Shown: positions 4,747 through 32,415 of the stretch, piece after piece | Layout of the letters: every line of letters begins with the position of its first letter | Position numbering within the stretch: position 1 is the stretch's first letter | Assembly (NCBI GenBank): GCA_011773515.1 | Contig: WVXK01000062.1 | Location: forward strand, 68,751-132,750 | Length of the DNA stretch: 64,000 bases | Direction of reading: 5' to 3' | Source of the DNA: Deltaproteobacteria bacterium | Lineage (GTDB): Bacteria > Desulfobacterota > Deferrimicrobia > J040 | Notes under the pieces: generated by a model | Database searches by the model: none | The model's input: only the letters and a program-made list of their open reading frames with translations | What the model was told of the DNA's origin: nothing | Translations under genes and position numbers: made by a program

Positions 4747-6192
4747 CTATTGCTTTTTGACAACCACGTACATTCTCCTTTCCCCTCTCTCGACGAGAAA
4801 AAGAACGCTGTCATCAGCTGAACCCTTTTTCAGGGCTTCCCTGAACTCATTCAAACTCCCGATGCGGTTTCTGTTCACCTGCCTTATGATGTCTCTCTCA
4901 CGAATACCGGCATCATCGGTGGGAGATCCCGACGCCACGCCGGTGACAATCACCCCTTTCATGTCCTCAATCTCCATGTGCTTCGCTATTTCCTCGGTGA
5001 TGTCCTGAACGGTCAGTCCCAGGTCCCCAATAATGTCCGTCTTTGCCATGGTGACCTCTTCGGGCATCTCTCCGAGTTTTACCTCCACAGTCTGCTCTTT
5101 ACCGTCCCTTATTATCCCGACCTTGACCTTCGTGCCAGGTGGGGTATCTGCAACGATGGCAGGGAGTTGCTGCGCATCCTCGATCTTCTTGGCGTTGAAT
5201 TCCTTCAGCACATCTCCCTCTTTCAATCCGGCGCTCTCGGCTGGTGAGTCTTTCATCACCTCCGTGATGATCACCCCGTCCTTGGACTCGAGGTTGAGAG
5301 ATTTCGCCATGTCATCGGTTATGCTCTGCATGTAGATTCCGAGCCACCCCCGAACGACCTTTCCCCGCTCCTTCAGCTGCGCGAAAACGGTCTTGGCCAT
5401 GTTGACGGGTATGGCGAAACCGATCCCCTGCCCACCCTGAACGATGGCTGTGTTGATCCCCACCACTTCTCCCTTCAGGTTGAAGAGGGGACCTCCGCTG
5501 TTTCCGGGGTTGATGGAGGCGTCGGTCTGGATGAAGTCATCGTAGGGTCCCGATCCGATTACCCTTCCTTTCGCGCTCACGATTCCCGTCGTTACCGTGT
5601 GATCGAGGCCGAAGGGGTTCCCTATCGCAACGACCCACTCACCCACTTTCAGAGAATCCGAGTCACCCATCTCCACCGTTGGCAGGGTATCTCCGTTCCT
5701 TATCCGTATAAGCGCTATATCCGTCTTCGGATCGGTCCCTATGATTTCCGCCTCGAACTCCTTCCCGTCGTGCAGCTTCACCGTTATCTCGTCAGCCCGC
5801 TGTACAACGTGACTGTTCGTAAGTATGAACCCGTCTCCCGACACGATAAAGCCCGACCCGAGAGATCGCCTCTTCTGCTCCCTCGGCATCCTGCCGAAAA
5901 AATCCTCGAAAAACTCCTCAAAGGGATCCCGGGAGAAAGGGCTTCTGAATTGCGGCTTTCTGAACTTCACGATGGTCGTGGTGCTGATGTTCACGATGGA
6001 ATCTTTCACCCCCTCTACGAGCTCCGGGATGTTCGTGGGAAGATTGAAGTTGCTTTCTTTCTGTTCGCCGGGCTTCTTCTCGATATAGGCAGCATCCGTT
6101 TTTTCCAGCAATTTTCCATCTTTGCCGTGAATAATCAGCCCAACCAAAATCACCAGTGCCAGAAGGAGCACACCGATTCTTACCTTCCTCAT
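4747..6192 (-). CDS. degP: periplasmic serine endoprotease DegP/HtrA family (trypsin domain + 2 PDZ)
   Basis: 481 aa; signal peptide [19 protein letters not shown]; catalytic motifs [15 protein letters not shown]; two PDZ-like regions; ATG with AAAGGAGGTGG RBS. Confidence 0.9.
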
Positions 6193-6230: not shown

Positions 6231-6713
6231 CTATGGATTATTCGATACGCCCTGCGCAACCTTCACGTAAACCATCCTCAGCTGGGAAAGGTATTCTTTG
6301 ATCAATGAATCTTCTTCCTCGGACAGGTTTCCCCTCGTTTTACGCTCCAGGACCCCGAGAAGGTCGATATATTGCCTGGCAATCTCCAGATTCGGCTCCC
6401 CGGGTGTCATCCCCTCACCTTCGAGCATGCCCAGTGAGGCCAGTGCCTGCATAAAAAAAGACTTCACGATGTCGGTGAAATCGGGTTCGTGGTATCGGGG
6501 GGGGGTCTCCCGGGCGTAATCTCCGCTCCCACCCGTTTTTTCGGCGGGCCCTTCGCTCTTTTTCGGCTCTTGACTCGCGTCTTTTGCCTGCTTGGCCCCC
6601 TCAGCTGCCCTGGACCCCACGGGAGGGACATCGCTTTTTTCTTCCGGTGCGTCCTCTCTTCCGATTCTCCTCTTGTCGATAACCCTGAACCCCTTCTCCT
6701 TCTCATCACCCAT
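6231..6713 (-). CDS. DUF1844-family hypothetical protein, translationally coupled to upstream Clp ATPase
   Basis: 160 aa; Lys/Glu-rich N-terminus then PDFTDIVKSFFMQALASLGMLEG (DUF1844-like core). Its ATG (6711-6713) directly abuts the TAG stop of the ClpA-like gene (TAGATG). Confidence 0.7.
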   Translation of the reverse strand: MGDEKEKGFRVIDKRRIGREDAPEEKSDVPPVGSRAAEGAKQAKDASQEPKKSEGPAEKTGGSGDYARETPPRYHEPDFTDIVKSFFMQALASLGMLEGEGMTPGEPNLEIARQYIDLLGVLERKTRGNLSEEEDSLIKEYLSQLRMVYVKVAQGVSNNP

Positions 6714-8993: not shown

Positions 8994-9851
8994 TCAAGCT
9001 GACGTTCCCGCCATTTTTGACAGCCTCTGTATTCTTTCCTCAAGTGGCGGGTGAGTTGAGAAAAGAGCCCCGAACGCCCTTCGTCCGGAAAAATTGTTGA
9101 CGATAAACAGATGGGATGTGGCCGGGTTCGCCGCGATCGGGCGCGAGGGCCGGTATCCTCCAAGTTTTCTCAATGCGCTTGCAAGGTTCTCGGGTTTCCC
9201 GGATAGCTTCGCTCCTGAGGCATCGGCGAGATATTCCCTGCCCCGTGAGATTCCCAGCTGTATAACCATGGCGGCAATCGGCGCAAAGATCGCCACCGCC
9301 AGCAGCCCGAGAATTCCTCCTTCCCCGTCGTCGTCTCTGCCGCCGATGCCGAATATTGCAGCGAATCGTGCCATGGAGGCGAGCATCATGACTGCGCCGG
9401 CAAGGGTGGCAGCAACTGTCTGTATCAGCGTATCCCGGTTTCTGATATGGGCAAGCTCATGGGCCAAAACGCCCTCTATTTCGTCCTCCGTGAGCAAACC
9501 GAGCAATCCCGTGGTTACTGCCACGGCAGAGTTTTCCGGGTTTCGCCCGGTGGCAAAAGCGTTCGGCGTCGGATTCGGCACCACACACACTTTGGGCATG
9601 GGGAGGCCACCGGCCCGCGTCAATTCCCTTACGATGCGGTACAACTGGGGATACTCACCTTCATCGGCCTCCTTGGCCCTGTACATGCCGAGTACGATCC
9701 TGTCTGAAAACCAGTAGCTTCCGAAGTTAAAGAGAATGGCAAAGACAAAAGCGATGAGCATCCCCTGTCTTCCGCCAAACAAGCTCCCAATAACCAGCAG
9801 AAGGCCCGTCAGGAGGCTGAGAAGTATTGCCGTTCTAAACGTGCTCGTCAT
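8994..9851 (-). CDS. htpX: membrane zinc metalloprotease HtpX (M48)
   Basis: 285 aa, TM helices, HELAHIRNRD (HExxH) motif, typical HtpX length and topology. Confidence 0.9.
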   Translation of the reverse strand: MTSTFRTAILLSLLTGLLLVIGSLFGGRQGMLIAFVFAILFNFGSYWFSDRIVLGMYRAKEADEGEYPQLYRIVRELTRAGGLPMPKVCVVPNPTPNAFATGRNPENSAVAVTTGLLGLLTEDEIEGVLAHELAHIRNRDTLIQTVAATLAGAVMMLASMARFAAIFGIGGRDDDGEGGILGLLAVAIFAPIAAMVIQLGISRGREYLADASGAKLSGKPENLASALRKLGGYRPSRPIAANPATSHLFIVNNFSGRRAFGALFSTHPPLEERIQRLSKMAGTSA

Positions 9852-9896: not shown

Positions 9897-10979
9897 CTAC
9901 TCTGAGTACCTACTCCTTATATCATTATCTTCCCATTTTGCCATTTCTTTAACAAGTCTTCTGTACGCCTCGTCCTGATTTCTGGGAAGGACAACCCTGA
10001 CCACGACATACTGGTCACCCCTTCCCCCGCCGCTTTTGTATGCGCCCTTGCCCTTCAACCGTATCTTCTTTCCGCTCTCGGTACCCGGGGGAATCTTCAC
10101 CTTCACCGTGCCGTCTATGGTCGGCACCTCGATCGTGGCCCCGAGAACAGCCTCAGAGTAATTGAGAGGAACTTCCATGAATATATCGAATCCCTCTCTC
10201 TTGAAGAACCGGTGGGCTCCTACCTCGACTTCCAGGTAGAGATCCCCTGAGCCTCCACCAGCTCTGCCCATCTCTCCTTTTCCTGCAACTCTCACCTTCG
10301 TTCCCCTGCTTGCGCCCGGTGGGATTTTGACCTTAATCCTTTCCGAGACATCTTTCATCCCCGCGCCAATGCATGACCCGCAGGGGGAACCGGTAAATCC
10401 TGCCCCCCTGCAACTTTCACAGGGCTGGGCTATACCCAATATCCCTCCCCCGCGCTTCATCCGCCCGCTGCCCCCGCAGGTTGCACAGGTGGATCGGGCA
10501 CCCGCCTGAATTCCTACTCCCCCGCAGTCAGGGCATTCCACGCGCCTTCTGTAGCTCAGCTCCCTTTCGGTCCCCTTTGCCGCCTCCAGAAAAGAGAGTT
10601 CGGCCCTGATCACGAGATCTCTTCCCCGCGTTGGTCCCCACTCACCATGTCCGGAACGCCCGAAAATATCCCCGAATATGTCTCCCAGGTCGAAGGACAT
10701 TCCCCTTCCGCCGGGATAGTCAAACCCTGAAAAACCCTCGAATCCGCCGGAGGAAAAGGCTCCCCTCTTCACGGCATCGTACTGCGCTTTCTTGCTCTCG
10801 TCGGATAGAACATCATGAGCTTCGTTTATTTCTTTGAACTTTTTCTCCGCTTCCTCATTCCCCGGATTTACGTCGGGATGATATTTCTTCGCAAGTCTTC
10901 TGAACGCTCTCTTTATCTCCTCTTTCGTGGCGCTTTCCGGGATGCCAAGTATTTTGTAATAGTCCCTTGAAAAATCCAT
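9897..10979 (-). CDS. dnaJ: chaperone DnaJ
   Basis: 360 aa; J-domain (YYKILGIPESATKEEIKRAFRRLAKKYHPDVN), G/F region, four CxxCxGxG zinc-finger repeats, C-terminal domains. Confidence 0.95.
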   Translation of the reverse strand: MDFSRDYYKILGIPESATKEEIKRAFRRLAKKYHPDVNPGNEEAEKKFKEINEAHDVLSDESKKAQYDAVKRGAFSSGGFEGFSGFDYPGGRGMSFDLGDIFGDIFGRSGHGEWGPTRGRDLVIRAELSFLEAAKGTERELSYRRRVECPDCGGVGIQAGARSTCATCGGSGRMKRGGGILGIAQPCESCRGAGFTGSPCGSCIGAGMKDVSERIKVKIPPGASRGTKVRVAGKGEMGRAGGGSGDLYLEVEVGAHRFFKREGFDIFMEVPLNYSEAVLGATIEVPTIDGTVKVKIPPGTESGKKIRLKGKGAYKSGGGRGDQYVVVRVVLPRNQDEAYRRLVKEMAKWEDNDIRSRYSE

Positions 10980-11059: not shown

Positions 11060-11512
11060 TTACCCAGCGTTGATGTCTATCTTCTTGGGTCTCACCTCTT
11101 CTTTCTTCGGAAGAATGATCTCGAGGACGCCATCTTTGAACGTAGCCGATACCTTCTCCTGATCAATCTTGGAGTTCAGGGAAAAGGATCTCCTAAAGGA
11201 TCCATACTCGCGCTCCATGAGATGGAAATGCTCCTTGTCCACCTCTTTCTGATACTTCCTCTCGCCCCGTATCGTCAGGATCCCGTCCTTGACCTCGATG
11301 CTTACATCATCCCGGCCTATCCCGGGAAGCTCGGCTGTTACCATCACCTGTGAATCCGTTTCACATATATCCACAGAGGGTGACCAGACGCCTTTTCCCG
11401 GGACATCCTCCTTTTTCCGGGAGCCTCGAAATTTTTCTTCGAAGAGCCTGTTCATCCTGTCCTGAATTAGCGCAAGCTCCCTTAGAGGATCATACCACCT
11501 TACGATAGCCAT
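11060..11512 (-). CDS. small heat-shock protein (Hsp20/alpha-crystallin family)
   Basis: 150 aa; alpha-crystallin domain (AELPGIGRDDVSIEVKDGILTIRGER); AGGAGG RBS 7 nt upstream; only 27 bp downstream of dnaK. Confidence 0.9.
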   Translation of the reverse strand: MAIVRWYDPLRELALIQDRMNRLFEEKFRGSRKKEDVPGKGVWSPSVDICETDSQVMVTAELPGIGRDDVSIEVKDGILTIRGERKYQKEVDKEHFHLMEREYGSFRRSFSLNSKIDQEKVSATFKDGVLEIILPKKEEVRPKKIDINAG

Positions 11513-11539: not shown

Positions 11540-13462
11540 TCATGAACTCGACTTATCCTGATCTTCAAACTCCGCGTCGATAACATCGGAATCGCCCGCC
11601 GCTCCCTCACCGGACGGCTGAGACGCTGTCGCCTCTCCGGCTCCTTCTTCCGGCTCGGCTGTTTTTGCCTGCTTGTACATTATCTCCGCAATCTTGTGGG
11701 CCTCCTTCATCAGCTCGTCTGCAGCAGAGCGAAGGGCGTCTTCGTCATCCGACTTCAGCACTTCTTTTGCCCTGCTCAACCCATCTTCTGCTTTTGAGAC
11801 TTCATCCGGTGGCAGTTCAGAACGGTTCTCGTTCAAAGTCTTCTCTATGTTATAGATGAGGTTGTCGAGATTATTCCTGGCCTCGACGATCCTCCTTTGC
11901 TTTTTGTCCTCTTCAGAGTGAACTTCCGCTTCATCGACCATCCTCTTGATCTCCTCATCGGTTAGTCCCGTAGAGGACGTGACGGTTATCCTCTGTTCCT
12001 TGTTGGTTGCGAGGTCTTTCGCCGAAACATTGAGAATCCCGTTGGCGTCAATGTCGAAGGTCACCTCCACCTTGGGGATTCCCCTGGGTGCCGGGGGAAT
12101 ACCCTCGAGGTGAAATCGACCGAGGGTCCTGTTGGCCCTTGCCATTTCACGTTCACCCTGGAGAACGTGAATCTCCACCGATGTCTGGTTGTCGGCCGCA
12201 GTGGTAAATATCTCGCTCTTTTTGACCGGTATGGTCGTATTTCGCTCGGTAATTTTGGTCATTACGCCCCCGAGTGTCTCTATGCCGAGCGAGAGAGGAG
12301 TAACATCGAGGAGGAGAACGTCCTTGACCTCTCCGCCGAGGACGCCCGCCTGAACCGCCGCCCCGAGGGCAACGACTTCATCGGGGTTCACACCCTTGTG
12401 GGGCTCTTTTCCGAAGAAATTTTTGACCGCCTCCTGAACCTTGGGGATCCTGGTGGAGCCCCCGACGAGAATGATTTCATCGATGTCATCTCCCTTCAAG
12501 TCAGCATCGGAGAGGGCAAGCCTGCAGGGTTCAAGGGTACGCTCAACGATCTGTTCAATCATGGTTTCGAGCTTCGCCCTGGTCAATTTCATGCTGAGGT
12601 GTTTCGGTCCGGAAGCGTCTGCGGTGATAAACGGCAGGTTTATCTCCGTCTCGAGAACAGACGAGAGCTCGATCTTTGCTTTCTCGGCCGCTTCCTTCAG
12701 CCTCTGGAGAGCCATCTTGTCCTTGGACAGGTCTATTCCCTGGTCCTTCCTGAACTCCTCTATGATCCAGTCGATTACCCGCTGATCGATGTTGTCACCG
12801 CCAAGGTGCGTATCCCCGTTGGTCGCTTTCACCTCGACCACATTCTCTCCCACCTCGAGAATGGATATATCGAAGGTACCACCACCAAAATCATACACCG
12901 CTATGACCTCGTTCTTCTTCTTGTCCAGCCCGTATGCCAGTGCTGCAGCGGTGGGCTCGTTGATGATCCTCATCACCTCGAGGCCCGCGATGGTCCCGGC
13001 ATCTTTGGTTGCCTGCCGCTGCGAGTCGTTGAAGTATGCAGGAACGGTGATGACAGCTTTCTTGACCTCCTCGCCGAGATATGCCTCTGCGGCTTTTTTC
13101 AGCTTCCCCAGGACCATGGCCGATATCTGCTGTGGGGTGTAATCCTTGCCTGCAACCAGGATACGAGCGTCGTTGTTCGGCCCGCTCTGTACCTGGTACG
13201 GCACCATCTCTTTTTCTTCCTTTACCTCATCATGGCGCCGTCCCATGAATCGCTTTATCGAAAAGACGGTATTGTCCGGGTTCGTGATTGCCTGTCTTTT
13301 CGCTACCTGCCCGACAAGAACCTGCCCATCCTTTGCGAAAGCAACGACCGACGGGGTCAGCCTGGATCCCTCTTCATTGATGATGACTTTGGGCTCCCCA
13401 CCCTCCATCACCGCGACAACCGACATCGTGGTACCAAGGTCAATACCGATAATCTTTGACAT
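11540..13462 (-). CDS. dnaK: chaperone DnaK (Hsp70)
   Basis: 640 aa; [30 protein letters not shown], full NBD + SBD + lid; GGAGG RBS overlapped by the stop codon of the upstream REC gene. Confidence 0.97.
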
Positions 13463-13478: not shown

Positions 13479-13862
13479 TTATTTTTTGGGCGTTCTGGTA
13501 ATCAACCGTGCGATAAACCGTGAAAGTGTCTCCGGATGGAGGGGCCTGGTGACGAAACCGACGGCACCAGACTCCAGAGCCCGCGTCCACCGCTCCAGAC
13601 TCCCACTTTCAGACATAAAAACCGAGGGGATCGAAGAGGTAATGTCCAGAAGGTTCCCCAGCGGATCATATCCACCGTAGGGTATGTCATCTAGGTCTAT
13701 GAGCGCCATGGAAAACCCGCCTTTTGCCCATTTCTGCCCAAAATCGAGAAGGTCGAGGCAGACCTCGGCTTCGATACCGAAAACACCGAGTTCCTCGACG
13801 AGCTCCCTTATCTCATCTCCCATCTCTTTCCTGCCTACTATGAGCAGAACCCTCGCAAACAT
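13479..13862 (-). CDS. stand-alone atypical receiver (REC/CheY-like) domain protein
   Basis: 127 aa; CheY-like spacing with phosphoacceptor-position Asp (MALIDLDD), Ser at beta4 (VFMSESG), but the acidic Mg-binding pair after beta1 is replaced (IVGRKE) and the beta5 Lys is Arg (VTRPL). GGAGG RBS; TAA stop at 13479-13481 lies inside the dnaK RBS. Confidence 0.75.
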
Positions 13863-13898: not shown

Positions 13899-13913
13899 TC
13901 AAAAGTCATGCCA
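13899..13913 (-). promoter_or_regulatory. weak sigma-54-like -24/-12 element upstream of REC-dnaK (TGGCATG-N4-TTGA)
   Basis: Minus strand aattgTGGCATGacttTTGAaac. -24 GG present; -12 is GA rather than the consensus GC. About 25-nt leader to the REC ATG. Confidence 0.25.
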
Positions 13914-14011
13914 CAATTTGCTTTAGAAAAAAATTAACACAAGATACCGAAAAGAAATGGCTTTTACATTTTATGCCGATGATGGCAATCAGGGAAAGAC
14001 ACCGATGAGGC

Positions 14012-14044
14012 CTGCCAAAATGGCCTGGCGTGTCATTTTGGCAG
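14012..14044. promoter_or_regulatory. perfect 10-bp inverted repeat CTGCCAAAAT-N13-ATTTTGGCAG (candidate enhancer/operator)
   Basis: Seen directly; sits between the 3' end of the sigma-54 activator gene and the REC-dnaK start (~165 bp upstream of REC ATG); half-sites contain TGGCA. Confidence 0.5.
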
Positions 14045-14053
14045 ACCCTTTGC
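14038..14053 (+). promoter_or_regulatory. sigma-54-type -24/-12 motif TTGGCAG-accct-TTGC on plus strand (antisense to activator gene)
   Basis: GG-N10-GC spacing satisfied (GG 14040-41, GC 14052-53); overlaps right arm of the inverted repeat; would fire into the 3' end of the minus-strand activator gene. Confidence 0.3.
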
Positions 14054-14058: not shown

Positions 14059-15468
14059 TTACGGTAATCCGTATTCCTTGATCTTTCTGTAGAGGGTCCT
14101 CACTCCGATACCCAGCATCTTGGCCGCTTTTGTCTTGTTGTTTCCCGTTGCTTTCAAGGCTTCGATTATGGCATTTTTTTCAACCTCATCCAGCGGAATG
14201 ACCACGGCACCCCCATCGTCTTCAGCGGGGGATTCCACCCTTCCCGCGACGGGTATCGGATCCCTTCCTTCTCTGTACCGCTTTCTTTTGAGTTCGGTCG
14301 GGAGAACCTCTTTGGAGATAACCTCCCCCTCCGTGAGCAGAACCATGGATTCGATCACATTTCTCAACTCCCTCACGTTGCCCGGCCATGGGTACTGCTG
14401 AAAAACCCGCATCGCATCAGCCGAAATCCTCTTCTCCTCGAGACCGTTTTCCCTGCACAGGTTTTTTGTGAAATGGATCGCCAGGGTGGGTATATCCTCG
14501 GTTCTCTCTCTCAAAGGCGGAATATGTATCGTAAAGACGCTCAATCTGAAAAAGAGGTCTTCCCGAAACTTTTTCGACGAAACCAAGCCTCTCAGGTCAG
14601 AGTTCGTAGCGGCCACTATCCTCACGTCAACGTTGATGACCTTGCCTCCTCCGACTCTCAGGATCTCTTTCTGCTCGATTGCCCTGAGAAGCTTCGCCTG
14701 CGTCGAGAGAGTGAGGTCACCAATCTCATCGAGGAAGAGTGTCCCATCGGACGCAATTTCGAATTTTCCCTTTACCGCACCGACTGCGCCGGTGAATGCG
14801 CCTTTTTCATGGCCGAACAGTTCCGACTCAAGAATGCTTTCGGTGAGGGCGGCGCAGTTTATCGGCATAAAAAGTTTATCCTTCCGTGGGCTCATCTCGT
14901 GAATCGCACGCGCAACCAGCTCCTTCCCCGTGCCCGACTCACCGAGAATCAGGACGTTTGCCTTCGTGGGGGCGACCATGCGCACCATCTGCATTACCTT
15001 CTCCATTTCCCGCGACCGGTAGAGAATTTCACCGACTTCGGTTTTAACCAGTCTTCTCAGTGTCCCCAGCTCTTCCATCATCCCCCGAGCTCGAATCGTC
15101 TTGATCAGGACACCTTTCAGCTCTTCCATGTCAATGGGTTTTTGAAGGTAATCCGTCGCCCCTTCTTTGATTGCGTGGACTGCATTTCCGATCGTCCCGA
15201 AAGCCGTGAGGACGATTACCGGAGCGTGAGGATGGGCCTCTTTCACTTTCCTGATTACTTCCATGCCGTCTAAACCCGGCATTTTCATGTCTGTTATGAT
15301 TATGTCGCCCCCGGAATCATCGATGCGGGAGATAAACTCCAGGGGGGAATTGAAAAGCCTCACCTCGAAACCCAGGTTCGTAAGTGCCCTCCCGATGCTC
15401 GTGAGATTTTCTTTGTCATCATCGATAACCGTTACGCTTTTTCCGGAAAATTCCGGGAGCGATTTCAT
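14059..15468 (-). CDS. sigma-54-dependent response regulator (NtrC family: REC + AAA sigma-54 activator + Fis-type HTH)
   Basis: Track ORF extends to 15711 (alt start); true start ATG 15466-15468 (MKSLPEFSGKSVTVIDDDKEN) with GGAGG RBS. Canonical REC (DDD, D in IITDMKMPG, T, K); GESGTGKE Walker A, GAFTGA sigma-54 contact motif; C-terminal HTH AAKMLGIGVRTLYRKIKEYGL. Confidence 0.93.
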   Translation of the reverse strand: MKSLPEFSGKSVTVIDDDKENLTSIGRALTNLGFEVRLFNSPLEFISRIDDSGGDIIITDMKMPGLDGMEVIRKVKEAHPHAPVIVLTAFGTIGNAVHAIKEGATDYLQKPIDMEELKGVLIKTIRARGMMEELGTLRRLVKTEVGEILYRSREMEKVMQMVRMVAPTKANVLILGESGTGKELVARAIHEMSPRKDKLFMPINCAALTESILESELFGHEKGAFTGAVGAVKGKFEIASDGTLFLDEIGDLTLSTQAKLLRAIEQKEILRVGGGKVINVDVRIVAATNSDLRGLVSSKKFREDLFFRLSVFTIHIPPLRERTEDIPTLAIHFTKNLCRENGLEEKRISADAMRVFQQYPWPGNVRELRNVIESMVLLTEGEVISKEVLPTELKRKRYREGRDPIPVAGRVESPAEDDGGAVVIPLDEVEKNAIIEALKATGNNKTKAAKMLGIGVRTLYRKIKEYGLP

Positions 15469-16226
15469 TTCACAACCTCCGGAAGGTACCGCCCCCTCTG
15501 TTTCTTCGCCAACACCTCCCGGAAACTTTCCTCCGGAAGGAAAGAGAGGGTAAACTCCGTCCCCTTTCTCTTCCTGCTCCTTATGCGTACCTTGCCGTGA
15601 TGCTCCCTCATTATCCTCTTCACTATCGGCAAACCCAACCCGCTCCCTTCGGTCTTGGTCGTGTAAAACACCGAGAACACTTTTCCCCTGTCCTTCCTTT
15701 CGATCCCGCAACCGTTGTCCTTGACCTTTACGAAATAGAAATTCTCCTCTTTTCCCGTTGTCACCCTGATCGTCTTGTCCTCCTTGTCAAGCGATTCCGC
15801 AGCGTTTAAAAGCACGTTCAAAAGAGCCTGTTTCACCATTTTTTCATCGACGAGAACAGGAAAAGGAGCCTCGTCGGGCAAGTATCGCACCTTAATGTCC
15901 CTGCCACGAAAGTCGACCTCCACGAACCGGACCACTTCCTCGACAACCCTGTTTAGGTCAGTAACGACAAACTCCGGCTTCTTCGGGCGGGTCAGCCGCA
16001 AAAATTCCGAAACGATGTCGTTGAGCCTGTTCAAAACTCGAAGATTCGAGTCGATGATCTCCTGCATTTCTCCTTTCTTTTCAAACCACTCAGGCAGAAG
16101 AAACGTATATTCCGAGAGAAGCTGATTATTGATGCTCAGCGCATTGAGCGGATTTCGAATCTCATGGGCAATGCCGGACAGAGCCGATTCGAGCTCTTCC
16201 TGGGAAACTTTTTTTTTCCGGGCCAT
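15465..16226 (-). CDS. cytoplasmic histidine kinase lacking any sensor/TM domain (HisKA + HATPase_c only)
   Basis: 253 aa; H-box GIAHEIRNPLNAL begins ~17 aa from the N-terminus; G-boxes DNGCGIE, GSGLGLPIVKRIM. 4-nt overlap (ATGA) with the activator gene. Confidence 0.9.
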   Translation of the reverse strand: MARKKKVSQEELESALSGIAHEIRNPLNALSINNQLLSEYTFLLPEWFEKKGEMQEIIDSNLRVLNRLNDIVSEFLRLTRPKKPEFVVTDLNRVVEEVVRFVEVDFRGRDIKVRYLPDEAPFPVLVDEKMVKQALLNVLLNAAESLDKEDKTIRVTTGKEENFYFVKVKDNGCGIERKDRGKVFSVFYTTKTEGSGLGLPIVKRIMREHHGKVRIRSRKRKGTEFTLSFLPEESFREVLAKKQRGRYLPEVVK

Positions 16227-16270
16227 CAGGCCTCTCCGTATAGATCTCAGTTACCTTAAGGATATATTTT

Positions 16271-16639
16271 TCAAGGATTATTTTCAATCAGGTGGGGGAT
16301 AAAAACATTTTTGATATCGGGAAGATAAATCTTTTCAGCGGGCGTTTCAAGGACCAGTCTCGCTCCTTTTACCGGCAATATAATCCTGTTCGGAGGGATG
16401 TTCCTGATTATCTTCACCACCTCCCCGCTGGATGACACGAAGAAAGCATCTATCCTGAATCTCATGAAAAACGTGTGGATCGAACTGCAGGGAAACAGAA
16501 TCACCGGTTCCCCTACCGTGTGAACTTTCCTGAATGCAAGACCGAAAAACCTCTCAAGGAAAGAGTCAAGAAGACGCGCTTCGACGACCAGGTCCCCCAT
16601 TGAAGAACGGGCCTCTACCGTGACTCTCCCACCGGCCAT
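16271..16639 (-). CDS. DUF192 (COG1430) family protein
   Basis: Track ORF 16271..16741; internal ATG at 16637-39 (MAGGRVTVEAR) chosen because the upstream lipoprotein gene ends at 16662. DUF192-like core (LERFFGLAFR...GEPVILFPCSSIHTFFMRFRIDAFFV). Start uncertain. Confidence 0.65.
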   Translation of the reverse strand: MAGGRVTVEARSSMGDLVVEARLLDSFLERFFGLAFRKVHTVGEPVILFPCSSIHTFFMRFRIDAFFVSSSGEVVKIIRNIPPNRIILPVKGARLVLETPAEKIYLPDIKNVFIPHLIENNP

Positions 16640-16661
16640 ACCAGCCCCCGACTGCGGTCGT

Positions 16662-17201
16662 TCAGAAATAGGTTGCCTCGATGAAGGGAACGAGACCGGT
16701 TCCCAGGTTATCCCCGCCGTCCTCGAGAAAAACGGCTCCATCCCTGGCTTCGAGGCTGATCTGAAAACGGTCCCCCCTTCCCTCCAGCGCGTCGATCAGA
16801 ATATCCGTCACATCGAGAAAGACATAGCTCATCTCATCGGACAGGAAAATCTCGAAGCTTCCCGCGTAGATACCGGACCCCTGGAAGATATCTATCACCA
16901 GCGAGTCTTCAGGAGCAAAGACAGAGTGAACACCGATGAACAGGAAAGCATGCGAAATGAAAGCATGGGGGGGGATGGCGTGAAGGGGGAAGGAAAAAAA
17001 CCCCGTTGAAAAATGACTCTCTACGAGTATCCCGTCGTGAAGGAATATACCCTCGGTATCCACATATCCATCTTCCGAATCGATGCTGACAAGTTCAACG
17101 ACCACGCCATCATCACCATCGAACAGAAACGACCCCTCAACATTGCAGCCGGCAAGCAGAAGGAGCAACGCAACGGGCCCAAGCATCTTTTTCATCTTCA
17201 T
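16662..17201 (-). CDS. acidic lipoprotein of unknown function
   Basis: Track ORF to 17261 (TTG). Likely start MKMKKMLGPVALLLLLAGC (lipobox LAGC) with GGAGG RBS; mature part is Asp/Glu-rich (DGDDGVVVELVSIDSEDGYVDTEG). Coordinates may be off by 1 nt (my line counting disagreed with the track by one base here). Confidence 0.6.
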   Translation of the reverse strand: MKMKKMLGPVALLLLLAGCNVEGSFLFDGDDGVVVELVSIDSEDGYVDTEGIFLHDGILVESHFSTGFFSFPLHAIPPHAFISHAFLFIGVHSVFAPEDSLVIDIFQGSGIYAGSFEIFLSDEMSYVFLDVTDILIDALEGRGDRFQISLEARDGAVFLEDGGDNLGTGLVPFIEATYF

Positions 17202-17353
17202 AGCCCTGACCTCCATGAAAGAGAAGACGGCACGGGCGAAAGCTATATTCACTGAGGGCAACTATATGGTAGCGTATGGCTGGGTGTTATACTATATGCT
17301 GATATGTGCCTTTTTGCTTCACGTGCCACTGAACACATAAGCAGACGGAACGG

Positions 17354-19417
17354 GTGCGGATGCTCACAGGAAAAATAAGAATCGCCGCAATCACCTTGAC
17401 CTGCCTGGCTGCCGGCATGTTTTGCGGAATCCTCTTTGTCTACTTTTCCGGGCCTTTCCCCGATGTGTCGGTGCTGAAGGAATATCGTCCCTACAACGCC
17501 ACGAAAGTGTACGACAAAGACGGCAGAAACATAGCCGAATTTGCCATTGAGCAGAGAACAACCATTCCCCTCGAAGAGATACCGGAGCTCATCAAAAAAG
17601 CCTTCATCGCAGCCGAGGACTCCAAGTTTTACATGCACGGCGGGATAGACCTTTCAGGCATCATGCGCGCCCTCATCAAGAATATCCAAAAATTCAAATT
17701 CTCCCAGGGAGGTTCGACCATCACGCAGCAACTCGTAAAGCTCCTCTACCTGACGCCCGAGAAAAGCATCCGGAGAAAAATCCTCGAGATACTGCTGGCG
17801 ATAAAGGTTGACAATAACCTATCGAAAGACGAGATCCTCGGCCTTTATCTGAACCAGATCTACCTCGGAGAGGGACAGTACGGCGTGAATGCCGCTGCGA
17901 GGACTTACTTCGGGAAGGATCCCGGTGAGCTCACCCTTGGCGAAATAGCCCTCATCGCGGGGCTCCCAAAATCACCCGGTTACTATTCCCCCCGGACTCA
18001 TCCTGAAAGATCCCTCATGCGACGCAGGTACGTCCTCGAACGGATGGTGGACGAGGATTACATAACACAGGAAGATGCCATACTTGCAGCTCTCGAACCG
18101 GTAACGCTCGTTGCGAAAAAGGACAGGTCGACGGGATCTTACTTCGTCGAGTACGTAAGAAGGTACCTCCATGAGAAATATGGTTACGATGTTCTCTACA
18201 AGGGGGGGCTGCAGGTCTACACCACCATGGACAGGGAACTCCAGGAGGTGGCGGAAACGAGCCTGCGCGAGTGGATCGAGGAACTCGAACCAACCATAGA
18301 AAAAAAGAAACGTGATACCGGGCAGGCAGAGATAGAAAAAATCGAAATAGCAGATGAAAGCGGAGATCAGGAGGCAAAGGAGGTCGAACTCCAGGGCGCG
18401 CTTCTGGCGATCGACATCACAAACGGGGAGGTCCTCTCCATAGTTGGGGGCAGGGACTTCTCCCGCTCCCAGTTCAACCGGGCGATCCAGTCCAGGAGGC
18501 AACCGGGTTCGGCTTTCAAACCGGTCATATACGCAGCAGCAATTGATTCGGGCTACACCCCCGCAGACAGGATTGGGGACAATCCCGTGGAATATGTGAA
18601 AAACGAAAAGGAGAACTGGAAACCGACAAACTATGACGAAAAATTCCTCGGCGACATAACCCTCAGGGAGGCGCTTGCCAGATCCAGAAATCTGGCTACC
18701 GTGAGGCTTCTGGAAAAGATTGGCATACAGAAAGCCATTTCGATGGCAAGGACCCTGGGTATCGATTCAAACATACCCGGTGACCTCTCCATAGCACTCG
18801 GCAGCCTCTCACTCTCCCTGATTGACTTATGCCAGGCATACGCAGCCATAGGAAATCTCGGGAAGCAGCCAGAACCCCTCTATATCAGGGAGGTCAGGGA
18901 CATGGGCGGGGAAATACTCGAGAGCAACAAACCCACCCTCACACAAGTATTATCTCCAGAAACGTCGTATATAATGACATACATGCTTCAATCAGTCATC
19001 AGGGATGGAACGGGAAGAAAGGCGAAGTTTCTGGGAACGAATCTTTCGGGGAAAACGGGGACCACGAACGACTACATCGATGCCTGGTTCATCGGTTTTT
19101 CGCCGAGAGTTCTCGCCGGAGTTTGGGTCGGGTTCGACAACCCCATAACCATGGGAAAGGGGAAAACGGGGGCCGTTGCAGCCCTTCCAATCTGGATACG
19201 ATACATGAAAAAGGCGATACGGAAGTATCCCGCCTCCCAGTTCGATCTCGCACCGGGAATCGTGTTTGCAAAAGTCGACCCCAAAAGCGGGTTGAGGGTT
19301 GGCAAAGATAAGAGGGGAATAATGGTACCATTCAGGCTGGGAACCACGCCACCCTGGCTCCAGCCGGAGGTGAAAATGCGGGAGGAGAAGAAAAAATTTC
19401 TGGACGACATTTTATGA
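17354..19417 (+). CDS. mrcA: penicillin-binding protein 1A (bifunctional transglycosylase/transpeptidase)
   Basis: 687 aa; TM anchor; GT51 motifs EDSKFYMHGGID, GGSTITQQL; transpeptidase SAFKP, SGKTGTT. GTG at 17354 or ATG at 17360. Confidence 0.92.
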   Translation: MRMLTGKIRIAAITLTCLAAGMFCGILFVYFSGPFPDVSVLKEYRPYNATKVYDKDGRNIAEFAIEQRTTIPLEEIPELIKKAFIAAEDSKFYMHGGIDLSGIMRALIKNIQKFKFSQGGSTITQQLVKLLYLTPEKSIRRKILEILLAIKVDNNLSKDEILGLYLNQIYLGEGQYGVNAAARTYFGKDPGELTLGEIALIAGLPKSPGYYSPRTHPERSLMRRRYVLERMVDEDYITQEDAILAALEPVTLVAKKDRSTGSYFVEYVRRYLHEKYGYDVLYKGGLQVYTTMDRELQEVAETSLREWIEELEPTIEKKKRDTGQAEIEKIEIADESGDQEAKEVELQGALLAIDITNGEVLSIVGGRDFSRSQFNRAIQSRRQPGSAFKPVIYAAAIDSGYTPADRIGDNPVEYVKNEKENWKPTNYDEKFLGDITLREALARSRNLATVRLLEKIGIQKAISMARTLGIDSNIPGDLSIALGSLSLSLIDLCQAYAAIGNLGKQPEPLYIREVRDMGGEILESNKPTLTQVLSPETSYIMTYMLQSVIRDGTGRKAKFLGTNLSGKTGTTNDYIDAWFIGFSPRVLAGVWVGFDNPITMGKGKTGAVAALPIWIRYMKKAIRKYPASQFDLAPGIVFAKVDPKSGLRVGKDKRGIMVPFRLGTTPPWLQPEVKMREEKKKFLDDIL

Positions 19418-20463: not shown

Positions 20464-21912
20464 CTATCCCTTCACAACGAGAAGTGGCTTGAGTTTCGCC
20501 ACCTTTTCCGCAATGCCGAGCCTGTGCACGACCTCAACCACCTCCGACACATCCTTGTATGCTTCGGATACTTCCTCCAAGAGGGTTGCCCTCCCGGCCG
20601 CAAAAACCCTTATACCCCTCTTCAGGAGTTCACCCTTGATATCTCTTTTCCGGAACTGTCTCTTGGCGCTGGCCCTGGACATCGTTCTTCCCGCACCGTG
20701 GCAGGTGCTTCCGAAAGAAAGAGTCAGAGCATTCTCGGATCCCACGAGCACATATGAGCTTCGCCCCATATCTCCCGGTATGAGTACCGGCTGCCCCACG
20801 TCCCTGTATACCGGGGGAAGCTCGGGCCTTCCTGCAGGCAGTGAGCGGGTTGATCCTTTCCTGTGGACGAGGAGTTTCTTCTGTTTCCCTCCCACGTCGT
20901 GATTTTCTATCTTCACTATGTTGTGACCGCAGTCATACACGAGGTCCATCCCGAGTCCGGCAGGTCCCGTCTGGAGTACCTGCTGAAACGTCTCCCTCGT
21001 GAAGTGGCTGAGGACCTGCCTGTTGGCCCATGCATAATTTGCTGCACATGCGAGTCCCTTTAAATACCTTTTCCCCTCAGGTGATTGTATGTGCGCGCAG
21101 GCAAGCTGCCTGTCCGGAAGGTCGAGACCCTTTTCCCTCATGTATCTGACCATCTCGCCCAGGAAATCATCACACACCTGGTAACCGAAGCCTCGGGAGC
21201 CTGAGTGAACCTGGACGACAACCTGCCCCCCCCTCAAGCCGAAAGCATCGGCGGCTTCGGGGTTATATATCTCCTCAACCAGATCAATCTCGAGAAAATG
21301 GTTGCCCGAGCCGAGAGTTCCCAGCTGGTCTCTCCCTCTTTTCAGGGCTTTTTCGGAAACAACGTCGGGGTCGGCGCCGTGAAAAGTCCCCCCATCTTCC
21401 GTCCTTTCCAGGTCTTCCTCGGAACCGAACCCCTGCTTGACCACCCAGCGCGCACCCTGGCTGAGAACGTCTCTCTGCTCCGCCCTGCCGAGCCTTATCT
21501 TCCCCGTCGAGCCGACACCGGATGGTATGTTCGTAAAAAGCGCCGCTCCGAGCCTGTCCAGCTGTTGTTCAATGTCCTCGAGTTCGAGGTCGCTTCTCAA
21601 CAGCCTGCATCCGCAGTTGATGTCATATCCCACGCCCCCGGGGCTTATGACCCCCCTGTCCATGTCCATTGCCGCAACCCCACCGATGGGGAAACCGTAT
21701 CCGCGATGGATGTCGGGCATGGCAATGCTGTATTTTTCGATACCCGGAAGGTGCGCCACGTTCACAACCTGCCGGAGGCTATCATCCTTCACGATGTCCT
21801 GGAGCATTTCCCTGGAGGAAAACACAACACCGGGAACCTTCATTTTGCCGGCCTTTGGAATTTCCCACATGTAATCGTTTACTTTTACCAGCTCAATGCC
21901 TTCGAACTTCAT
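20464..21912 (-). CDS. rtcB: RNA-splicing ligase RtcB
   Basis: 482 aa; full-length RtcB with conserved metal/GTP-binding His/Cys residues. Confidence 0.95.
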   Translation of the reverse strand: MKFEGIELVKVNDYMWEIPKAGKMKVPGVVFSSREMLQDIVKDDSLRQVVNVAHLPGIEKYSIAMPDIHRGYGFPIGGVAAMDMDRGVISPGGVGYDINCGCRLLRSDLELEDIEQQLDRLGAALFTNIPSGVGSTGKIRLGRAEQRDVLSQGARWVVKQGFGSEEDLERTEDGGTFHGADPDVVSEKALKRGRDQLGTLGSGNHFLEIDLVEEIYNPEAADAFGLRGGQVVVQVHSGSRGFGYQVCDDFLGEMVRYMREKGLDLPDRQLACAHIQSPEGKRYLKGLACAANYAWANRQVLSHFTRETFQQVLQTGPAGLGMDLVYDCGHNIVKIENHDVGGKQKKLLVHRKGSTRSLPAGRPELPPVYRDVGQPVLIPGDMGRSSYVLVGSENALTLSFGSTCHGAGRTMSRASAKRQFRKRDIKGELLKRGIRVFAAGRATLLEEVSEAYKDVSEVVEVVHRLGIAEKVAKLKPLLVVKG

Positions 21913-21920
21913 GACTCCCC

Positions 21921-22340
21921 CTACACGTCGAGGATGAAGGTTGCCATGTACCCCTCAGCGCTTTTTTCGACCCTCAGGTCATGATAGGTTACCGCTTTAA
22001 TCTCAGTTTTGAGGACATGCCTGCCCTCGTGAAAAGGCTCTCCCCAGGCTTCCGGGCGGTATATACATTCGCCTCTCTCCAGCTTACCGTTTATGGATCT
22101 GATCAGGAAGCCCTCGCCGTAAAACTGAAAATGCACCCACCGCAGAAAGTTAAAGAAGAGATCCTCGATACCCGCGCCTTCTACGAAGGCCTCTTTTTTA
22201 CCGGCTTTCCTGACCCGCCTTCTGTCAACGATGATGCTCACCAGTGACTCCCCTGCCCGGGCAAACAGCTCCTCCAGCGACGCGGCCTCGATGAGAATCT
22301 TGAGGTCCGCCGTGTGGGGAAGGACCTTGTAGCCAGCCAT
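21921..22340 (-). CDS. archease (RtcB activator)
   Basis: 139 aa; MAGYKVLPHTADLKILIEAASLEELFARAGE... matches archease family; 8-nt gap to rtcB. Confidence 0.85.
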   Translation of the reverse strand: MAGYKVLPHTADLKILIEAASLEELFARAGESLVSIIVDRRRVRKAGKKEAFVEGAGIEDLFFNFLRWVHFQFYGEGFLIRSINGKLERGECIYRPEAWGEPFHEGRHVLKTEIKAVTYHDLRVEKSAEGYMATFILDV

Positions 22341-23080
22341 CAGTATCCAGCCTCGAGCCTCTCTGCCAGGAAGGGGGGCAAACCGGCGGTCATTATCTTT
22401 TCCTGGCAGGTTTTTATATCGTAGGGAGCCCTGACCCAGGTCACCACCATTTTATCCCGATCGAACATGACGTATGACGCCCTTACATCGCCGTCCCTTG
22501 GCTGTCCCGTCGAGCCGGGATTTACCAGGTAGCTCGAGTCCTCCTCCAGGGTGATGGATCCCTCTCCCCGATAGGAAGAAAATTTTCCGTCGGGGCCTAT
22601 CTTGTATGCCAGGGGAAAATGGGTGTGGCCAAAAAAACACACCTTCCTCTTGAGATTGCGTACCATGTACAATAACTCACTTTTAGCTGCCTCTTCGGAA
22701 AGGATATACCTGTCGGGATCCGAAGGGGCTCCGTGGACGATGAGTACGGTATCGTCAAAAACAACGGCGCTCCTCAACCTCTTGAGAAACTCCATGTTGG
22801 AGCGTTTCAGTACTTTCCTCGACCACATCACCGCCTCTTTCGCCACCCTGTTGAAGTGGGAGGGCTCGGTGTTACCGACAACGGCGCTGTCGTGGTTTCC
22901 CATGATCGCTATGCTGCACCTGTCTTTTACGATTTCACAGCACTGGTCGGGGTCGGCATTGTAACCGACAACATCGCCCAGACACCAGAGCTGCTCAGCG
23001 CCTCTTTTCTTCGCGTCCTCAACCACAGCCGTGAGGGCTTCAAGGTTGGAATGAACGTCCGATATGACGGCAACCTTCAT
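22340..23080 (-). CDS. calcineurin-like metallophosphoesterase (ApaH/PrpA-like)
   Basis: Track ORF to 23167; probable start MKVAVISDVHSN at 23080. Motifs DVHSN, GDVVGYNADP, GNHD, GHTH. 1-nt overlap with archease start. Confidence 0.85.
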   Translation of the reverse strand: MKVAVISDVHSNLEALTAVVEDAKKRGAEQLWCLGDVVGYNADPDQCCEIVKDRCSIAIMGNHDSAVVGNTEPSHFNRVAKEAVMWSRKVLKRSNMEFLKRLRSAVVFDDTVLIVHGAPSDPDRYILSEEAAKSELLYMVRNLKRKVCFFGHTHFPLAYKIGPDGKFSSYRGEGSITLEEDSSYLVNPGSTGQPRDGDVRASYVMFDRDKMVVTWVRAPYDIKTCQEKIMTAGLPPFLAERLEAGY

Positions 23081-23081
23081 T

Positions 23082-24347
23082 TCAGGAGACCCTGCCAGCC
23101 GGAACCACCCTTTCGCCTCCTCCGAAATCTCCGGCGATGTCCATGAATATCTCGAGGTCATACTCAATATCCCGGTGGGTTTCGTCGAAATAGAAAATCT
23201 TTATCGGCATCCCCCCAAGGTCCCCTGAGAGCTTGTAATAGATCGACTCAGATACGATTCCGTTCATACACGAGAAGGGACTTATGTCGATAACGCCCTT
23301 TGCCCCTTTTCGGTGATAGTAAACCGCTTTCCCGACGCTGAGAATCATCTCTCCCAGAGCCCCCCCCTGGGAGAGGTAGGGACTTGCGAGCCTGAGTATA
23401 TCCATCACGTCTCCGGGCTCCTCCCTTCCGATGAAAGTCTCTTTGAAGGGAGAGTAGAGCGCATGCTCTGTCTTTTTCTGGTAGTAATACTTCAGTTTGG
23501 CCGCAGCCATGTCCTTTGAAAAACCTTTTCCCAGCCTCTTTAAGCCCCTTTCGTTCTCCCTGTCCGTGTACCATATCCACTCGGCCACGTCGCTCTGCCA
23601 TGCCTCCCCTCCCAGCGCTTCGACTTTCCTGATGACATCCATGTTGCTGTACCTGTTCAGCCTGCAGAAAATCTCGCCGACTACACCGATGAGAGGTCTT
23701 TTTTCCCGCTTCACGGGCATGCGGTCGAAATCGTCCCTTATTTTCACAAAAGCCATCTTGAGATAACTGATGCACTTATCTGGCCGCTTCCCGTGGGCTC
23801 TTATGGTCTCGCATATTGCATCGAGAGCTATTTCGAAGAGCCTATCCGCCTCGCCCTCGTTGACCTCGTATGGCCTGTACATCAGCAGCAGTTTCCTCAA
23901 TATGTCGGCAGCCACGATCCCAAGCCAGGCAGGCTTCATGATCCTGCCGACGTATTTTTCAAAGCTTCCGTATCCGTCCTCGCAACTGGGGGAGATAATT
24001 TCCACGTCCCCGAGGCCGCTTTCGGCGAGTATTTTCTGCATGAATGGGGCATACTGCCCGAACCTGCAGGGGCCGTTCGATGTGGGGAACAAAATGGCCG
24101 TCTCCTCGGGTTTGTGCCCATCGACGAGAAAGAGTTTCAATATGTCTCCCGCCGTGATCTTCAGGGGATAACACTCCTCGCCGGAAGCATGCATCGCTCC
24201 CAGTTCCTGGGTCTTCTCATCGGAGGGCCCGATGACCCTGCCGTCCAGGTTAAGAGACTGCAGAACCGCCGCCATGGCCCTCGCTCCAGTGTAGGTCATG
24301 GGATGGATGAAAATTTTTCGATTCTCAAGCCCTCTTTGCTTCACCAT
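23082..24347 (-). CDS. DUF2229 / COG3581-like protein, partner of CoA-substrate-specific enzyme activase proteins
   Basis: 421 aa; resembles the uncharacterized partner family usually encoded next to BadF/HgdC-HgdB fusion proteins; alternative start at 24299 (MTYTGARAM). Confidence 0.6.
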   Translation of the reverse strand: MVKQRGLENRKIFIHPMTYTGARAMAAVLQSLNLDGRVIGPSDEKTQELGAMHASGEECYPLKITAGDILKLFLVDGHKPEETAILFPTSNGPCRFGQYAPFMQKILAESGLGDVEIISPSCEDGYGSFEKYVGRIMKPAWLGIVAADILRKLLLMYRPYEVNEGEADRLFEIALDAICETIRAHGKRPDKCISYLKMAFVKIRDDFDRMPVKREKRPLIGVVGEIFCRLNRYSNMDVIRKVEALGGEAWQSDVAEWIWYTDRENERGLKRLGKGFSKDMAAAKLKYYYQKKTEHALYSPFKETFIGREEPGDVMDILRLASPYLSQGGALGEMILSVGKAVYYHRKGAKGVIDISPFSCMNGIVSESIYYKLSGDLGGMPIKIFYFDETHRDIEYDLEIFMDIAGDFGGGERVVPAGRVS

Positions 24348-32414: not shown

Positions 32415-32415
32415 C

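Follow-up and report, generated by a model that had tools for sequence, protein, structure and literature searches.

A sensorless histidine kinase and an NtrC-type regulator as the probable two-component switch of a sigma-54-dependent heat-shock operon in Deltaproteobacteria

A 64,000-nucleotide stretch of the deltaproteobacterial contig WVXK01000062.1 (assembly GCA_011773515.1; the whole stretch is referred to as the window) encodes a 253-residue histidine kinase lacking any sensor domain, an NtrC-family response regulator and, downstream of both, a cluster of chaperone and protease genes. Comparison with related loci makes it rather probable that kinase and regulator work together as a two-component system dedicated to the control of a sigma-54-dependent heat-shock operon, with a cytoplasmic input for which we favour feedback from the regulon itself. 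From the sequences compared, the pair most likely switches on the DnaK/Hsp20/DnaJ/HtpX/Clp operon. The proposal is carried by a sigma-54-type promoter and a set of palindromes that are conserved in front of this operon, and by the linkage of the kinase and regulator genes to dnaK.

Neighbourhoods were compared for seven kinase orthologues, in which identity to the window kinase falls from 59% to 43%, and for three homologues of a lipoprotein that is encoded upstream of the kinase; the relatives were found by exact-protein look-ups. Nine loci carry the kinase gene: the window, L001 (the closest sampled relative of the window), L003, L004, L085, L087, L088, L091 and L092. Domains were called with Pfam at its per-family cut-offs, curated models are those of NCBIfam at equivalog cut-offs, and structural models are single chains from AF2/AlphaFold. 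A profile search of genome contigs with the kinase alignment gave, among the matches listed, paralogous kinases only (30–37% identity) and no orthologues. The gene arrangement recurs in independent metagenomic contigs, which rules out a chance pattern of open reading frames (ORFs). Coordinates are collected in Table 1.

Much of an initial annotation of this DNA was confirmed. The genes for the lipoprotein, a DUF192 protein, the kinase and the NtrC-type sigma-54 activator are co-oriented, all on the minus strand, and the activator gene does sit among chaperone and protease genes, with dnaK, hsp20, dnaJ and the genes for HtpX, Clp, DegP and ClpB downstream. The description of the kinase as a 253-residue protein without a sensor domain was borne out by Pfam, by hydropathy and by the AF2 model. 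The functional tie that had been proposed between the kinase–regulator pair and the chaperone and protease genes is now supported by the conserved sigma-54 promoter and palindromes before the dnaK operon in the nine loci. Of the suggested envelope or protein-folding stress pathway, the protein-folding part fits DnaK, Hsp20, DnaJ and Clp, while the envelope part fits less well, as only HtpX and DegP, distal in the cluster, speak for it.

In the kinase, Pfam recognized HisKA (PF00512, residues 15–81, 44.4 bits) and HATPase_c (PF02518, residues 127–232, 81.8 bits), both above cut-off, and no transmembrane, PAS, GAF, HAMP or periplasmic input domain; just 14 residues lie ahead of the HisKA match. 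The peak hydropathy over 19 residues is 0.99, which speaks against any transmembrane segment. The AF2 model consists of a DHp hairpin (helices 9–42 and 51–79), a CA domain (87–229) and a single short C-terminal helix, with no extra domain. Its confidence drops at the two termini and in the ATP lid; the model is otherwise unremarkable. Invariant across the family alignment are HEIRNPLN, which contains the phospho-accepting H21, as well as N137 and N141, DNGCGI, F187 and GSGLGL, and the loop of the DHp domain is conserved, too. Judged by its homologues, the shortness of the kinase is a property of the family and not a truncation: 117 of the 120 best homologues are 235–277 residues long. Those with a named source come from metagenome-assembled genomes of Deltaproteobacteria or Thermodesulfobacteriota. 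A conserved tail follows the CA domain (window positions 15465–15540, residues ~230–253). It has the pattern LP-E-x-x-F-R ... LPE-x-V-R/K, in which E232 and P249 are nearly invariant, and it is modelled as one short helix with a disordered end. A partner protein might dock at this tail.

The true start of the regulator gene overlaps the stop codon of the kinase gene in ATGA, indicating translational coupling of the two. Response_reg (PF00072, score 93.6), Sigma54_activat (PF00158, 228.9), AAA_lid_14 (PF25601) and HTH_8 (PF02954, 64.1) were all found above cut-off. The receiver is canonical (DD, D, T and K, in VIDDD, TDMKMP, LTA and QKP), the GAFTGA loop is present and the helix-turn-helix is of the Fis type. 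The nearest structures are the NtrC-family entries 4l4u and 1ny5.

Kinase, regulator, dnaK, hsp20 and dnaJ genes, in most cases with a small receiver gene in front of dnaK, are adjacent in all nine loci, down to a kinase identity of 43%. The gene for HtpX and then that for a Clp ATPase of about 755 residues follow in every locus where the fetched DNA reaches them. The linkage of the kinase–regulator pair to dnaK holds even where the upstream context is rearranged. In the window, the gaps are 16–80 nt from dnaK through htpX and 0–80 nt over the whole chaperone cluster. With scores that lie between ClpA and ClpB, the 755-residue Clp/Hsp100 ATPase stays below the cut-off of each equivalog model. 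A CIRCE element was not found in the window, even with three mismatches allowed, and no rpoH or hrcA gene is present among the 30 further window ORFs scanned.

A sigma-54-type promoter lies upstream of the first gene of the operon. The consensus of such promoters is TGGCAC-N5-TTGC, with GG at -24 and GC at -12. The window element has the form TGGCATG-N4-TTGA; the -24 GG and the spacing fit the consensus, and the -12 element is TTGA, not TTGC. GGCAYG-N4-TTG has a single match in the 64-kb window. With the pattern [TCG]GGCAYG-N4-TTG[ACT], one match per locus was found in the gap between the regulator gene and the small receiver gene or dnaK, just before the first start codon, in nine of nine loci (examples from relatives are TGGCACGCATCTTGT, TGGCACGGGATTTGT and CGGCACGGAAGTTGA). 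The sole extra match in the roughly 190 kb scanned is in L091.

The same gap contains palindromes of the type TGCCA-N3-TGGCA. Pairs are found at about -141/-131 and at -113 to -107 from the promoter motif in eight of the nine loci; L092 has one strict site, at -131. The density of the loose palindrome pattern near the promoter is 0.0077 per nt against a background of 0.0014, a 5.5-fold difference, and the positions are kept though the surrounding intergenic sequence has diverged. The two 13-bp palindromes of the window are candidate upstream activating sequences for the regulator. A sigma-54 promoter, tandem dyads 100–150 bp upstream of it and an adjacent gene for an enhancer-binding protein make up what is, at the level of predicted elements, the standard architecture of an NtrC-type regulon, and because of this layout we take the regulator to be the activator of the dnaK operon. 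On the plus strand, a sigma-54-like match (TGGCAGACCCTTTGC, 14039..14053) shares bases with the first palindrome and is directed, in antisense, into the regulator gene; we rejected it as a probable side effect of the palindromic sequence.

The first gene of the proposed operon encodes a small receiver-like protein. It precedes dnaK in seven of the nine loci and is missing in L004 and L091. The window protein reaches 24.5 bits with Response_reg (cut-off 30.2), its L092 orthologue 37.6 bits. In an alignment with CheY and with the receiver of the regulator, the equivalent of the phospho-acceptor Asp57 is invariant. In the window and in L001, IVG or ISG replaces the acidic residue after beta1 and Arg replaces Lys109, while the Lys and one acidic residue are retained in L092, L087, L003, L085 and L088. 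In L092, a 407-residue protein with an N-terminal hydrophobic segment (12224–13447) is encoded between the regulator and the small receiver, and the palindromes and the sigma-54 promoter are located downstream of its gene. It was considered as a homologue of the lipoprotein and rejected, as no homology was found; it has no Pfam match either.

Two genes in front of the kinase had been regarded as its only candidate input components. The DUF192 assignment itself is sound (PF02643, COG1430; 37.7 bits against a cut-off of 27; 37.4 bits for the L001 orthologue), with NF002996 below cut-off. Begun at 16741, the longer DUF192 ORF would share 80 nt with the lipoprotein gene, which makes the start at 16639 likelier, and neither version has a signal peptide or a hydrophobic N-terminus. 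The gene occurs in two of the nine kinase loci, the window and L001, and is absent from L003, L004, L085, L087, L088, L091 and L092. It is best read as a lineage-specific insertion. The literature searched yielded incidental mentions of DUF192 only, and no PDB sequence matched.

The ORF of the lipoprotein spans 17261..16662. Translation probably begins at ATG 17201, downstream of GGAGG, and yields a protein of 179 residues with the N-terminus MKMKKMLGPVALLLLLAGC; this N-terminus is built like a signal peptide, with a positively charged n-region, a core of hydrophobic residues and a lipobox of the form [LVI][ASTG][GA]C. By a simple pattern, 31 of 35 family members have a lipobox, and P0133, the protein of L003, has LNGC instead. 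The mature part of 161 residues contains 29 Asp and Glu (18%) and three Lys and Arg (1.9%), with a net charge of -26; the family medians are 12% and 4.5%. From this composition, the negative charge stems mostly from a scarcity of Lys and Arg. The protein is thus acidic, as had been noted, but 'very Asp/Glu-rich' overstates the case.

The constant neighbour of the lipoprotein gene is not the kinase gene but the divergent gene for PBP1A. In L092, the order is PBP1A (minus strand), lipoprotein, Lactamase_B, five signalling genes on the opposite strand, LysE, kinase, regulator, the 407-residue protein, small receiver and dnaK. There, 8.3 kb separate the lipoprotein gene from the kinase gene, and kinase and regulator remain beside dnaK; the homology of the L092 lipoprotein is supported by an E-value of 3.6e-27. 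L089, from a related organism (~80% nucleotide identity over common genes), pairs the lipoprotein with PBP1A and has no kinase gene within the 8 kb fetched downstream. In L091, the lipoprotein gene is with that for PBP1A and a 549-nt gap lies ahead of the kinase. L090 shows the lipoprotein in a third context, without an adjacent kinase.

The more distant loci also contain a putative signal for the transcription of the kinase gene. A TAGAAT(C) element of the -10 type, TG-extended in most cases, ends 7 nt before the GTG start codon of the kinase in L003, L004, L085, L088, L091 and L092, and L087 has the variant TGTACAAT (~6997-7011). The L092 element begins with a TAG that also ends the LysE gene. 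The called kinase start in L088 is seemingly 27 nt too far downstream. Given the position of the element, the transcript in these loci would be separate from the upstream genes, and the kinase–regulator mRNA probably arises there from its own extended -10 promoter and is leaderless. A scan for sigma-70 promoters and terminators gave counts no higher than in shuffled sequence and served as a pointer only.

In the mechanism that we propose, the kinase would phosphorylate the receiver domain of the regulator, and the phosphorylated regulator would assemble on the two TGCCA-N3-TGGCA sites just past its own stop codon. Its AAA+ domain with the GAFTGA loop would then remodel sigma-54 RNA polymerase at the promoter ~110–140 bp downstream. 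Transcription would cover the small receiver gene, dnaK, hsp20, dnaJ and htpX and would probably continue into the genes for the Clp ATPase, DUF1844, degP and clpB. We infer that the operon is heat-inducible. As the kinase is a bare DHp–CA protein that lacks membrane segments, and as none of the upstream genes is conserved together with it, its input is probably cytoplasmic, for example chaperone feedback or an intrinsic heat sensitivity. With feedback, free DnaK/DnaJ and/or the small receiver would restrain the kinase (or the regulator) or drain phosphate; unfolded proteins would titrate DnaK/DnaJ away and turn the system on, in parallel to the DnaK control of sigma-32 and HspR. The small receiver might alternatively be a phosphate sink or an inhibitor. 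Only tentatively do we put forward a more specific version, in which the bare kinase reads cytoplasmic folding stress directly, is held off by DnaK/DnaJ and/or the degenerate receiver, is released by unfolded proteins and provides the core heat-shock control throughout the lineage. If so, the core heat-shock response of this lineage would be a two-component sigma-54 titration circuit in place of sigma-32, HrcA or HspR, a phosphorelay counterpart of the logic of sigma-32 and HSF1.

The initial annotation had placed the signal elsewhere: the lipoprotein, as a cation-binding protein of the envelope, and/or the DUF192 protein would sense envelope stress and signal to the soluble kinase and on to the sigma-54 activator. 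Several observations agree with this, since the genes in the window are co-oriented with gaps of 22 and 44 nt and no predicted terminator, a lipoprotein gene lies upstream of the kinase in eight of the nine loci, and the envelope-acting HtpX and DegP are encoded at the distal end of the cluster. However, DUF192 is confined to two loci, the lipoprotein stays with PBP1A in L092 when kinase and regulator stay with dnaK, and it lacks an adjacent kinase in L089 (over the 8 kb fetched downstream) and in L090. The wide gap in L091 and the -10-type element before the kinase start in the distant loci also argue against a common unit. As the kinase has no membrane segment and the cluster encodes no membrane-spanning adaptor, the exported lipoprotein could not reach it; moreover, the lipoprotein is modelled as a carbohydrate-binding-type beta-sandwich whose acidity reflects few Lys and Arg and not an ion-binding tract. 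An envelope sensor feeding the kinase is unlikely because neither protein is a conserved partner of the kinase and because the distant loci have a separate -10 element, and we regard the annotated input model as a whole as very improbable.

Three further explanations leave the two upstream proteins aside. The kinase might itself act as a thermometer, in which autokinase and phosphatase activities would shift in balance with temperature, for instance because the DHp coiled coil or the conserved C-terminal helix changes in stability, with no partner involved. Only kinase, regulator and promoter are invariant across the loci, the family has a conserved DHp loop and a tail of ~25 residues with nearly invariant E232 and P249, and temperature-labile histidine kinases exist, such as Agrobacterium VirA and Synechocystis Hik34. 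A role of Hik34 in the heat response has been described (PMC4390874). The AF2 model, though, is ordinary save for low confidence at the termini and the ATP lid, and in its pure form the device would be deaf to the other proteotoxic stresses that usually induce such regulons; we consider it rather unlikely. Quite unlikely, in our estimation, is a kinase that is constitutive or a mere relay and receives its signal through an unlinked partner, which could be another sensor kinase, some PII-like protein or anti-kinase, or a small metabolite acting on the CA domain or on the AAA+ domain of the regulator. Cytoplasmic kinases under unlinked proteins are well known (NtrB is controlled by PII, KinA by Sda and KipI), no conserved accessory gene lies beside the kinase, and the window takes in 64 kb of a contig that is at least 306 kb long. 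Yet nothing indicates a specific partner, and the tight, exclusive linkage to the chaperone operon suggests a self-contained circuit. Hardly credible is the view that the adjacency to dnaK is inherited order without regulatory meaning and that the two-component system serves some other, unlinked sigma-54 promoter. Most loci are indeed syntenic from RtcB/archease to the Clp ATPase, but the diverged intergenic region still keeps the sigma-54 motif in all nine loci and the palindromes at fixed distances. A sigma-54 promoter requires an enhancer-binding protein, and the only nearby one ends 15 nt from the first palindrome; the kinase–regulator pair also remained with dnaK after the rearrangement in L092.

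Several points weigh against the switch that we favour. The -12 element is GA or GT in the window and its relatives and not the canonical GC. The loose palindrome pattern also occurs elsewhere, at the background density given above, so that the argument rests on the fixed position of the palindromes and not on their presence. The gene order from RtcB, archease and PBP1A through the Clp ATPase is syntenic in most loci, the only rearranged lineage being that of L089 and L092; because of this long-range synteny, gene order by itself says little, and part of the kinase–chaperone linkage could reflect inherited order instead of selection. The window and L001 have no TAGAAT element, and the kinase gene there has an ATG start and a Shine-Dalgarno sequence. 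In these two loci the kinase may thus be co-transcribed with the DUF192 and lipoprotein genes, and the cytoplasmic DUF192 protein may have a lineage-specific role. Being absent from L004 and L091, the small receiver cannot be indispensable to the feedback. The chaperone titration step is drawn by parallel with sigma-32 and HspR, and the model as a whole rests on sequence comparison.

All aligned homologues of the lipoprotein have the Cys of the lipobox and the motifs FPL, DVT and, at the C-terminus, P-L-x-V-x-Y. The family comprises 49 members in a word-indexed search and 1111 cluster representatives in an exhaustive search, almost all of 200–230 residues. The window protein and seven other family members have no Pfam match at E <= 0.01, the window protein has no NCBIfam match, and a profile search of the family against PDB sequences gave nothing significant. 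The AF2 model is a beta jelly roll with a predicted local distance difference test score (pLDDT) of 85.4. Its top Foldseek match is 8wab_A, a chondroitin-sulfate-binding carbohydrate-binding module (CBM; E 7.6e-7, TM-score 0.63, 176 columns, 11% identity), with weaker matches to the alginate-binding CBM 7vbo, the carbohydrate-binding domain of BcsB and TGF-beta prodomains. The modelled fold suggests a periplasmic glycan-binding-type module. It is like that of CBM96/DNRLRE modules, but the sequence gives no match to the family models. The domain was also found once within a 4139-residue RHS/Big/PKD/CBM_2 surface protein (P0315).

The synteny is a lead that the lipoprotein possibly works together with PBP1A. 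LpoA and LpoB are lipoprotein cofactors of class A penicillin-binding proteins. As with these, a lipoprotein is genetically linked here to a class A protein; the resemblance lies in this linkage, and the protein may serve PBP1A as an Lpo-like cofactor specific to the lineage or as a partner that binds glycan. The divergent intergenic region between the two genes contains a conserved motif, ATTATAGCA / ATTATATCA (window 17270–17300; also in L003, L004, L089, L091 and L092). Taken on the strand of PBP1A, this motif has the sequence TGCTATAAT, which is an extended -10 and probably the PBP1A promoter.

Some other features of the window were noted in passing. Beyond PBP1A and MoaA lies a cluster for RtcB, archease and a calcineurin-like phosphoesterase (20464–23167, minus strand), which is conserved in nearly all related loci and has no adjoining gene for an RtcR-type activator. 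The window further encodes a PilT/PilU-family ATPase with an N-terminal MshE-type c-di-GMP-binding domain (33393–34946, minus strand); a second, plain PilT gene (46271–47413) lies beside recA and recX. Archaeal-type genes for entry into the shikimate pathway, unusual in bacteria, encode 2-amino-3,7-dideoxy-D-threo-hept-6-ulosonate synthase and 3-dehydroquinate synthase II (31425–33252, minus strand).

Table 1. Features of the proposed two-component heat-shock system and its surroundings. Positions refer to the window unless a locus is named.
Feature	Position	Strand	Description
ClpB, canonical	2070..~4814	-	probable operon continuation
DegP/HtrA protease	4747..6192	-	probable operon continuation
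DUF1844	6231..6713	-	probable operon continuation; no gap after Clp ATPase
Clp/Hsp100 ATPase, 755 aa	6714..8981	-	probable operon continuation
HtpX-type M48 peptidase	8994..9851	-	proposed target operon
dnaJ	9897..10979	-	proposed target operon
hsp20	11060..11512	-	proposed target operon
dnaK	11540..13462	-	proposed target operon
Small receiver-like protein	13479..13862	-	127 aa, single domain; first gene of proposed sigma-54 operon
Sigma-54-type promoter TGGCATGACTTTTGA	13899..13913	-	36 nt upstream of small receiver start codon
Further palindrome TGCCATCATCGGCA	13974..13987
Palindrome TGCCAAAATGGCC	14013..14025	other strand	13 bp; 112 bp upstream of -24 element
Palindrome TGCCAAAATGACA	14031..14043	-	13 bp; 130 bp upstream of -24 element; begins 15 nt after regulator stop codon
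NtrC-family response regulator/sigma-54 activator	14059..15468	-	469 aa; REC, AAA+ (GAFTGA), HTH_8
Sensorless histidine kinase	15465..16226	-	253 aa; DHp (H21), CA and 25-aa conserved C-terminal tail
DUF192 gene	16271..16639	-	122 aa from ATG 16639; alternative start 16741; PF02643
Lipoprotein gene	16662..17201	-	179 aa, lipobox LAGC; beta jelly roll model, CBM96-like; divergent from PBP1A
PBP1A (transglycosylase and transpeptidase)	17354..19417	+	divergent from lipoprotein gene; conserved neighbour of the lipoprotein
Kinase -10-type element	L003 ~6985-7000; L004 6986-7000; L085 ~6986-7000
Kinase -10-type element	L088 ~6959-6973; L091 ~9180-9194; L092 9986-10000

Sequence fully specifies this compact system, which consists of the kinase and its regulator together with a promoter, a pair of palindromes and the small receiver. 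How a kinase without a sensor perceives stress is a question common to many 'sensorless' cytoplasmic kinases in genomes. Side leads from the comparison are a widespread, unannotated family of CBM96-like lipoproteins tied to PBP1A, and, in relatives, a kinase operon that is probably transcribed without a leader.

According to the textbooks, bacterial heat-shock control relies on sigma-32, HrcA/CIRCE and HspR. These are subject to titration by chaperones: sigma-32 is controlled by DnaK/DnaJ, HspR by DnaK and HrcA by GroEL. The regulator genes there are linked to the chaperone genes that they control, as in the window, and the negative feedback by free chaperone that we propose would be alike. 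The difference is that a sigma factor or repressors act in those systems, whereas here a phosphorelay and sigma-54 would do so. No description of a two-component, sigma-54-controlled dnaK-hsp20-dnaJ-htpX-clp operon turned up in the literature searched, the coverage of which was incomplete, nor did searches on sensorless kinases or on the control of dnaK and clpB by RpoN/NtrC bring up relevant work. In Planctomycetota and Bacteroidota, sigma-54 promoters predicted ahead of dnaK, dnaJ, grpE, groEL and ibpA have been reported as enriched (PMC12316311); that survey reports them neither for the present lineage nor with a dedicated two-component system.

The closest sequence matches are to known NtrC-type systems. 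The kinase core is most similar to ZraS and AtoS (structure 9jfj of ZraS, E 5e-30; NCBIfam models of AtoS and ZraS), and the best matches of the regulator are the NCBIfam models of NtrC, AtoC and ZraR. However, ZraS and AtoS are membrane proteins with a periplasmic or PAS sensor, and the window kinase aligns to their C-terminal 215–225 residues only. The scores are far below the equivalog cut-offs, with 146 against 479 bits for ZraS and 382 against 760 for ZraR. ZraSR, like the switch proposed here, drives the sigma-54 promoter of a stress chaperone gene, zraP; the proposed target of the window system is the cytoplasmic DnaK system.

The nearest functional precedent, although a partial one, is HsfB/HsfA of Myxococcus xanthus, where a histidine kinase and an NtrC-like activator induce lonD, a heat-shock gene (PMC9109919, citing Ueki & Inouye 2002). 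Shared features would be a His–Asp transfer to an NtrC-type sigma-54 activator of a heat-shock or quality-control gene, and a cytoplasmic kinase without a classical ligand-binding sensor (PMC9109919). HsfB is described there as having a fused N-terminal receiver, whereas the window kinase is bare and a separate small receiver is the first gene of the proposed target operon. The HsfA targets described (PMC9109919) are lonD, secondary-metabolite genes and pilY1 genes, not a dnaK operon. An M. xanthus REC-HisKA-HATPase protein (L067, not identified as HsfB) is 31% identical to the window kinase core. An origin of the kinase and the small receiver from a split HsfB is not supported, as the L067 hybrid shows 31% identity to the kinase and 23% to the small receiver, which is generic similarity only. 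The components of the system are ordinary members of their families. As far as sequence tells, what is new is their wiring: an NtrC-type switch for a core heat-shock operon, with a bare kinase and a receiver encoded in the operon itself.

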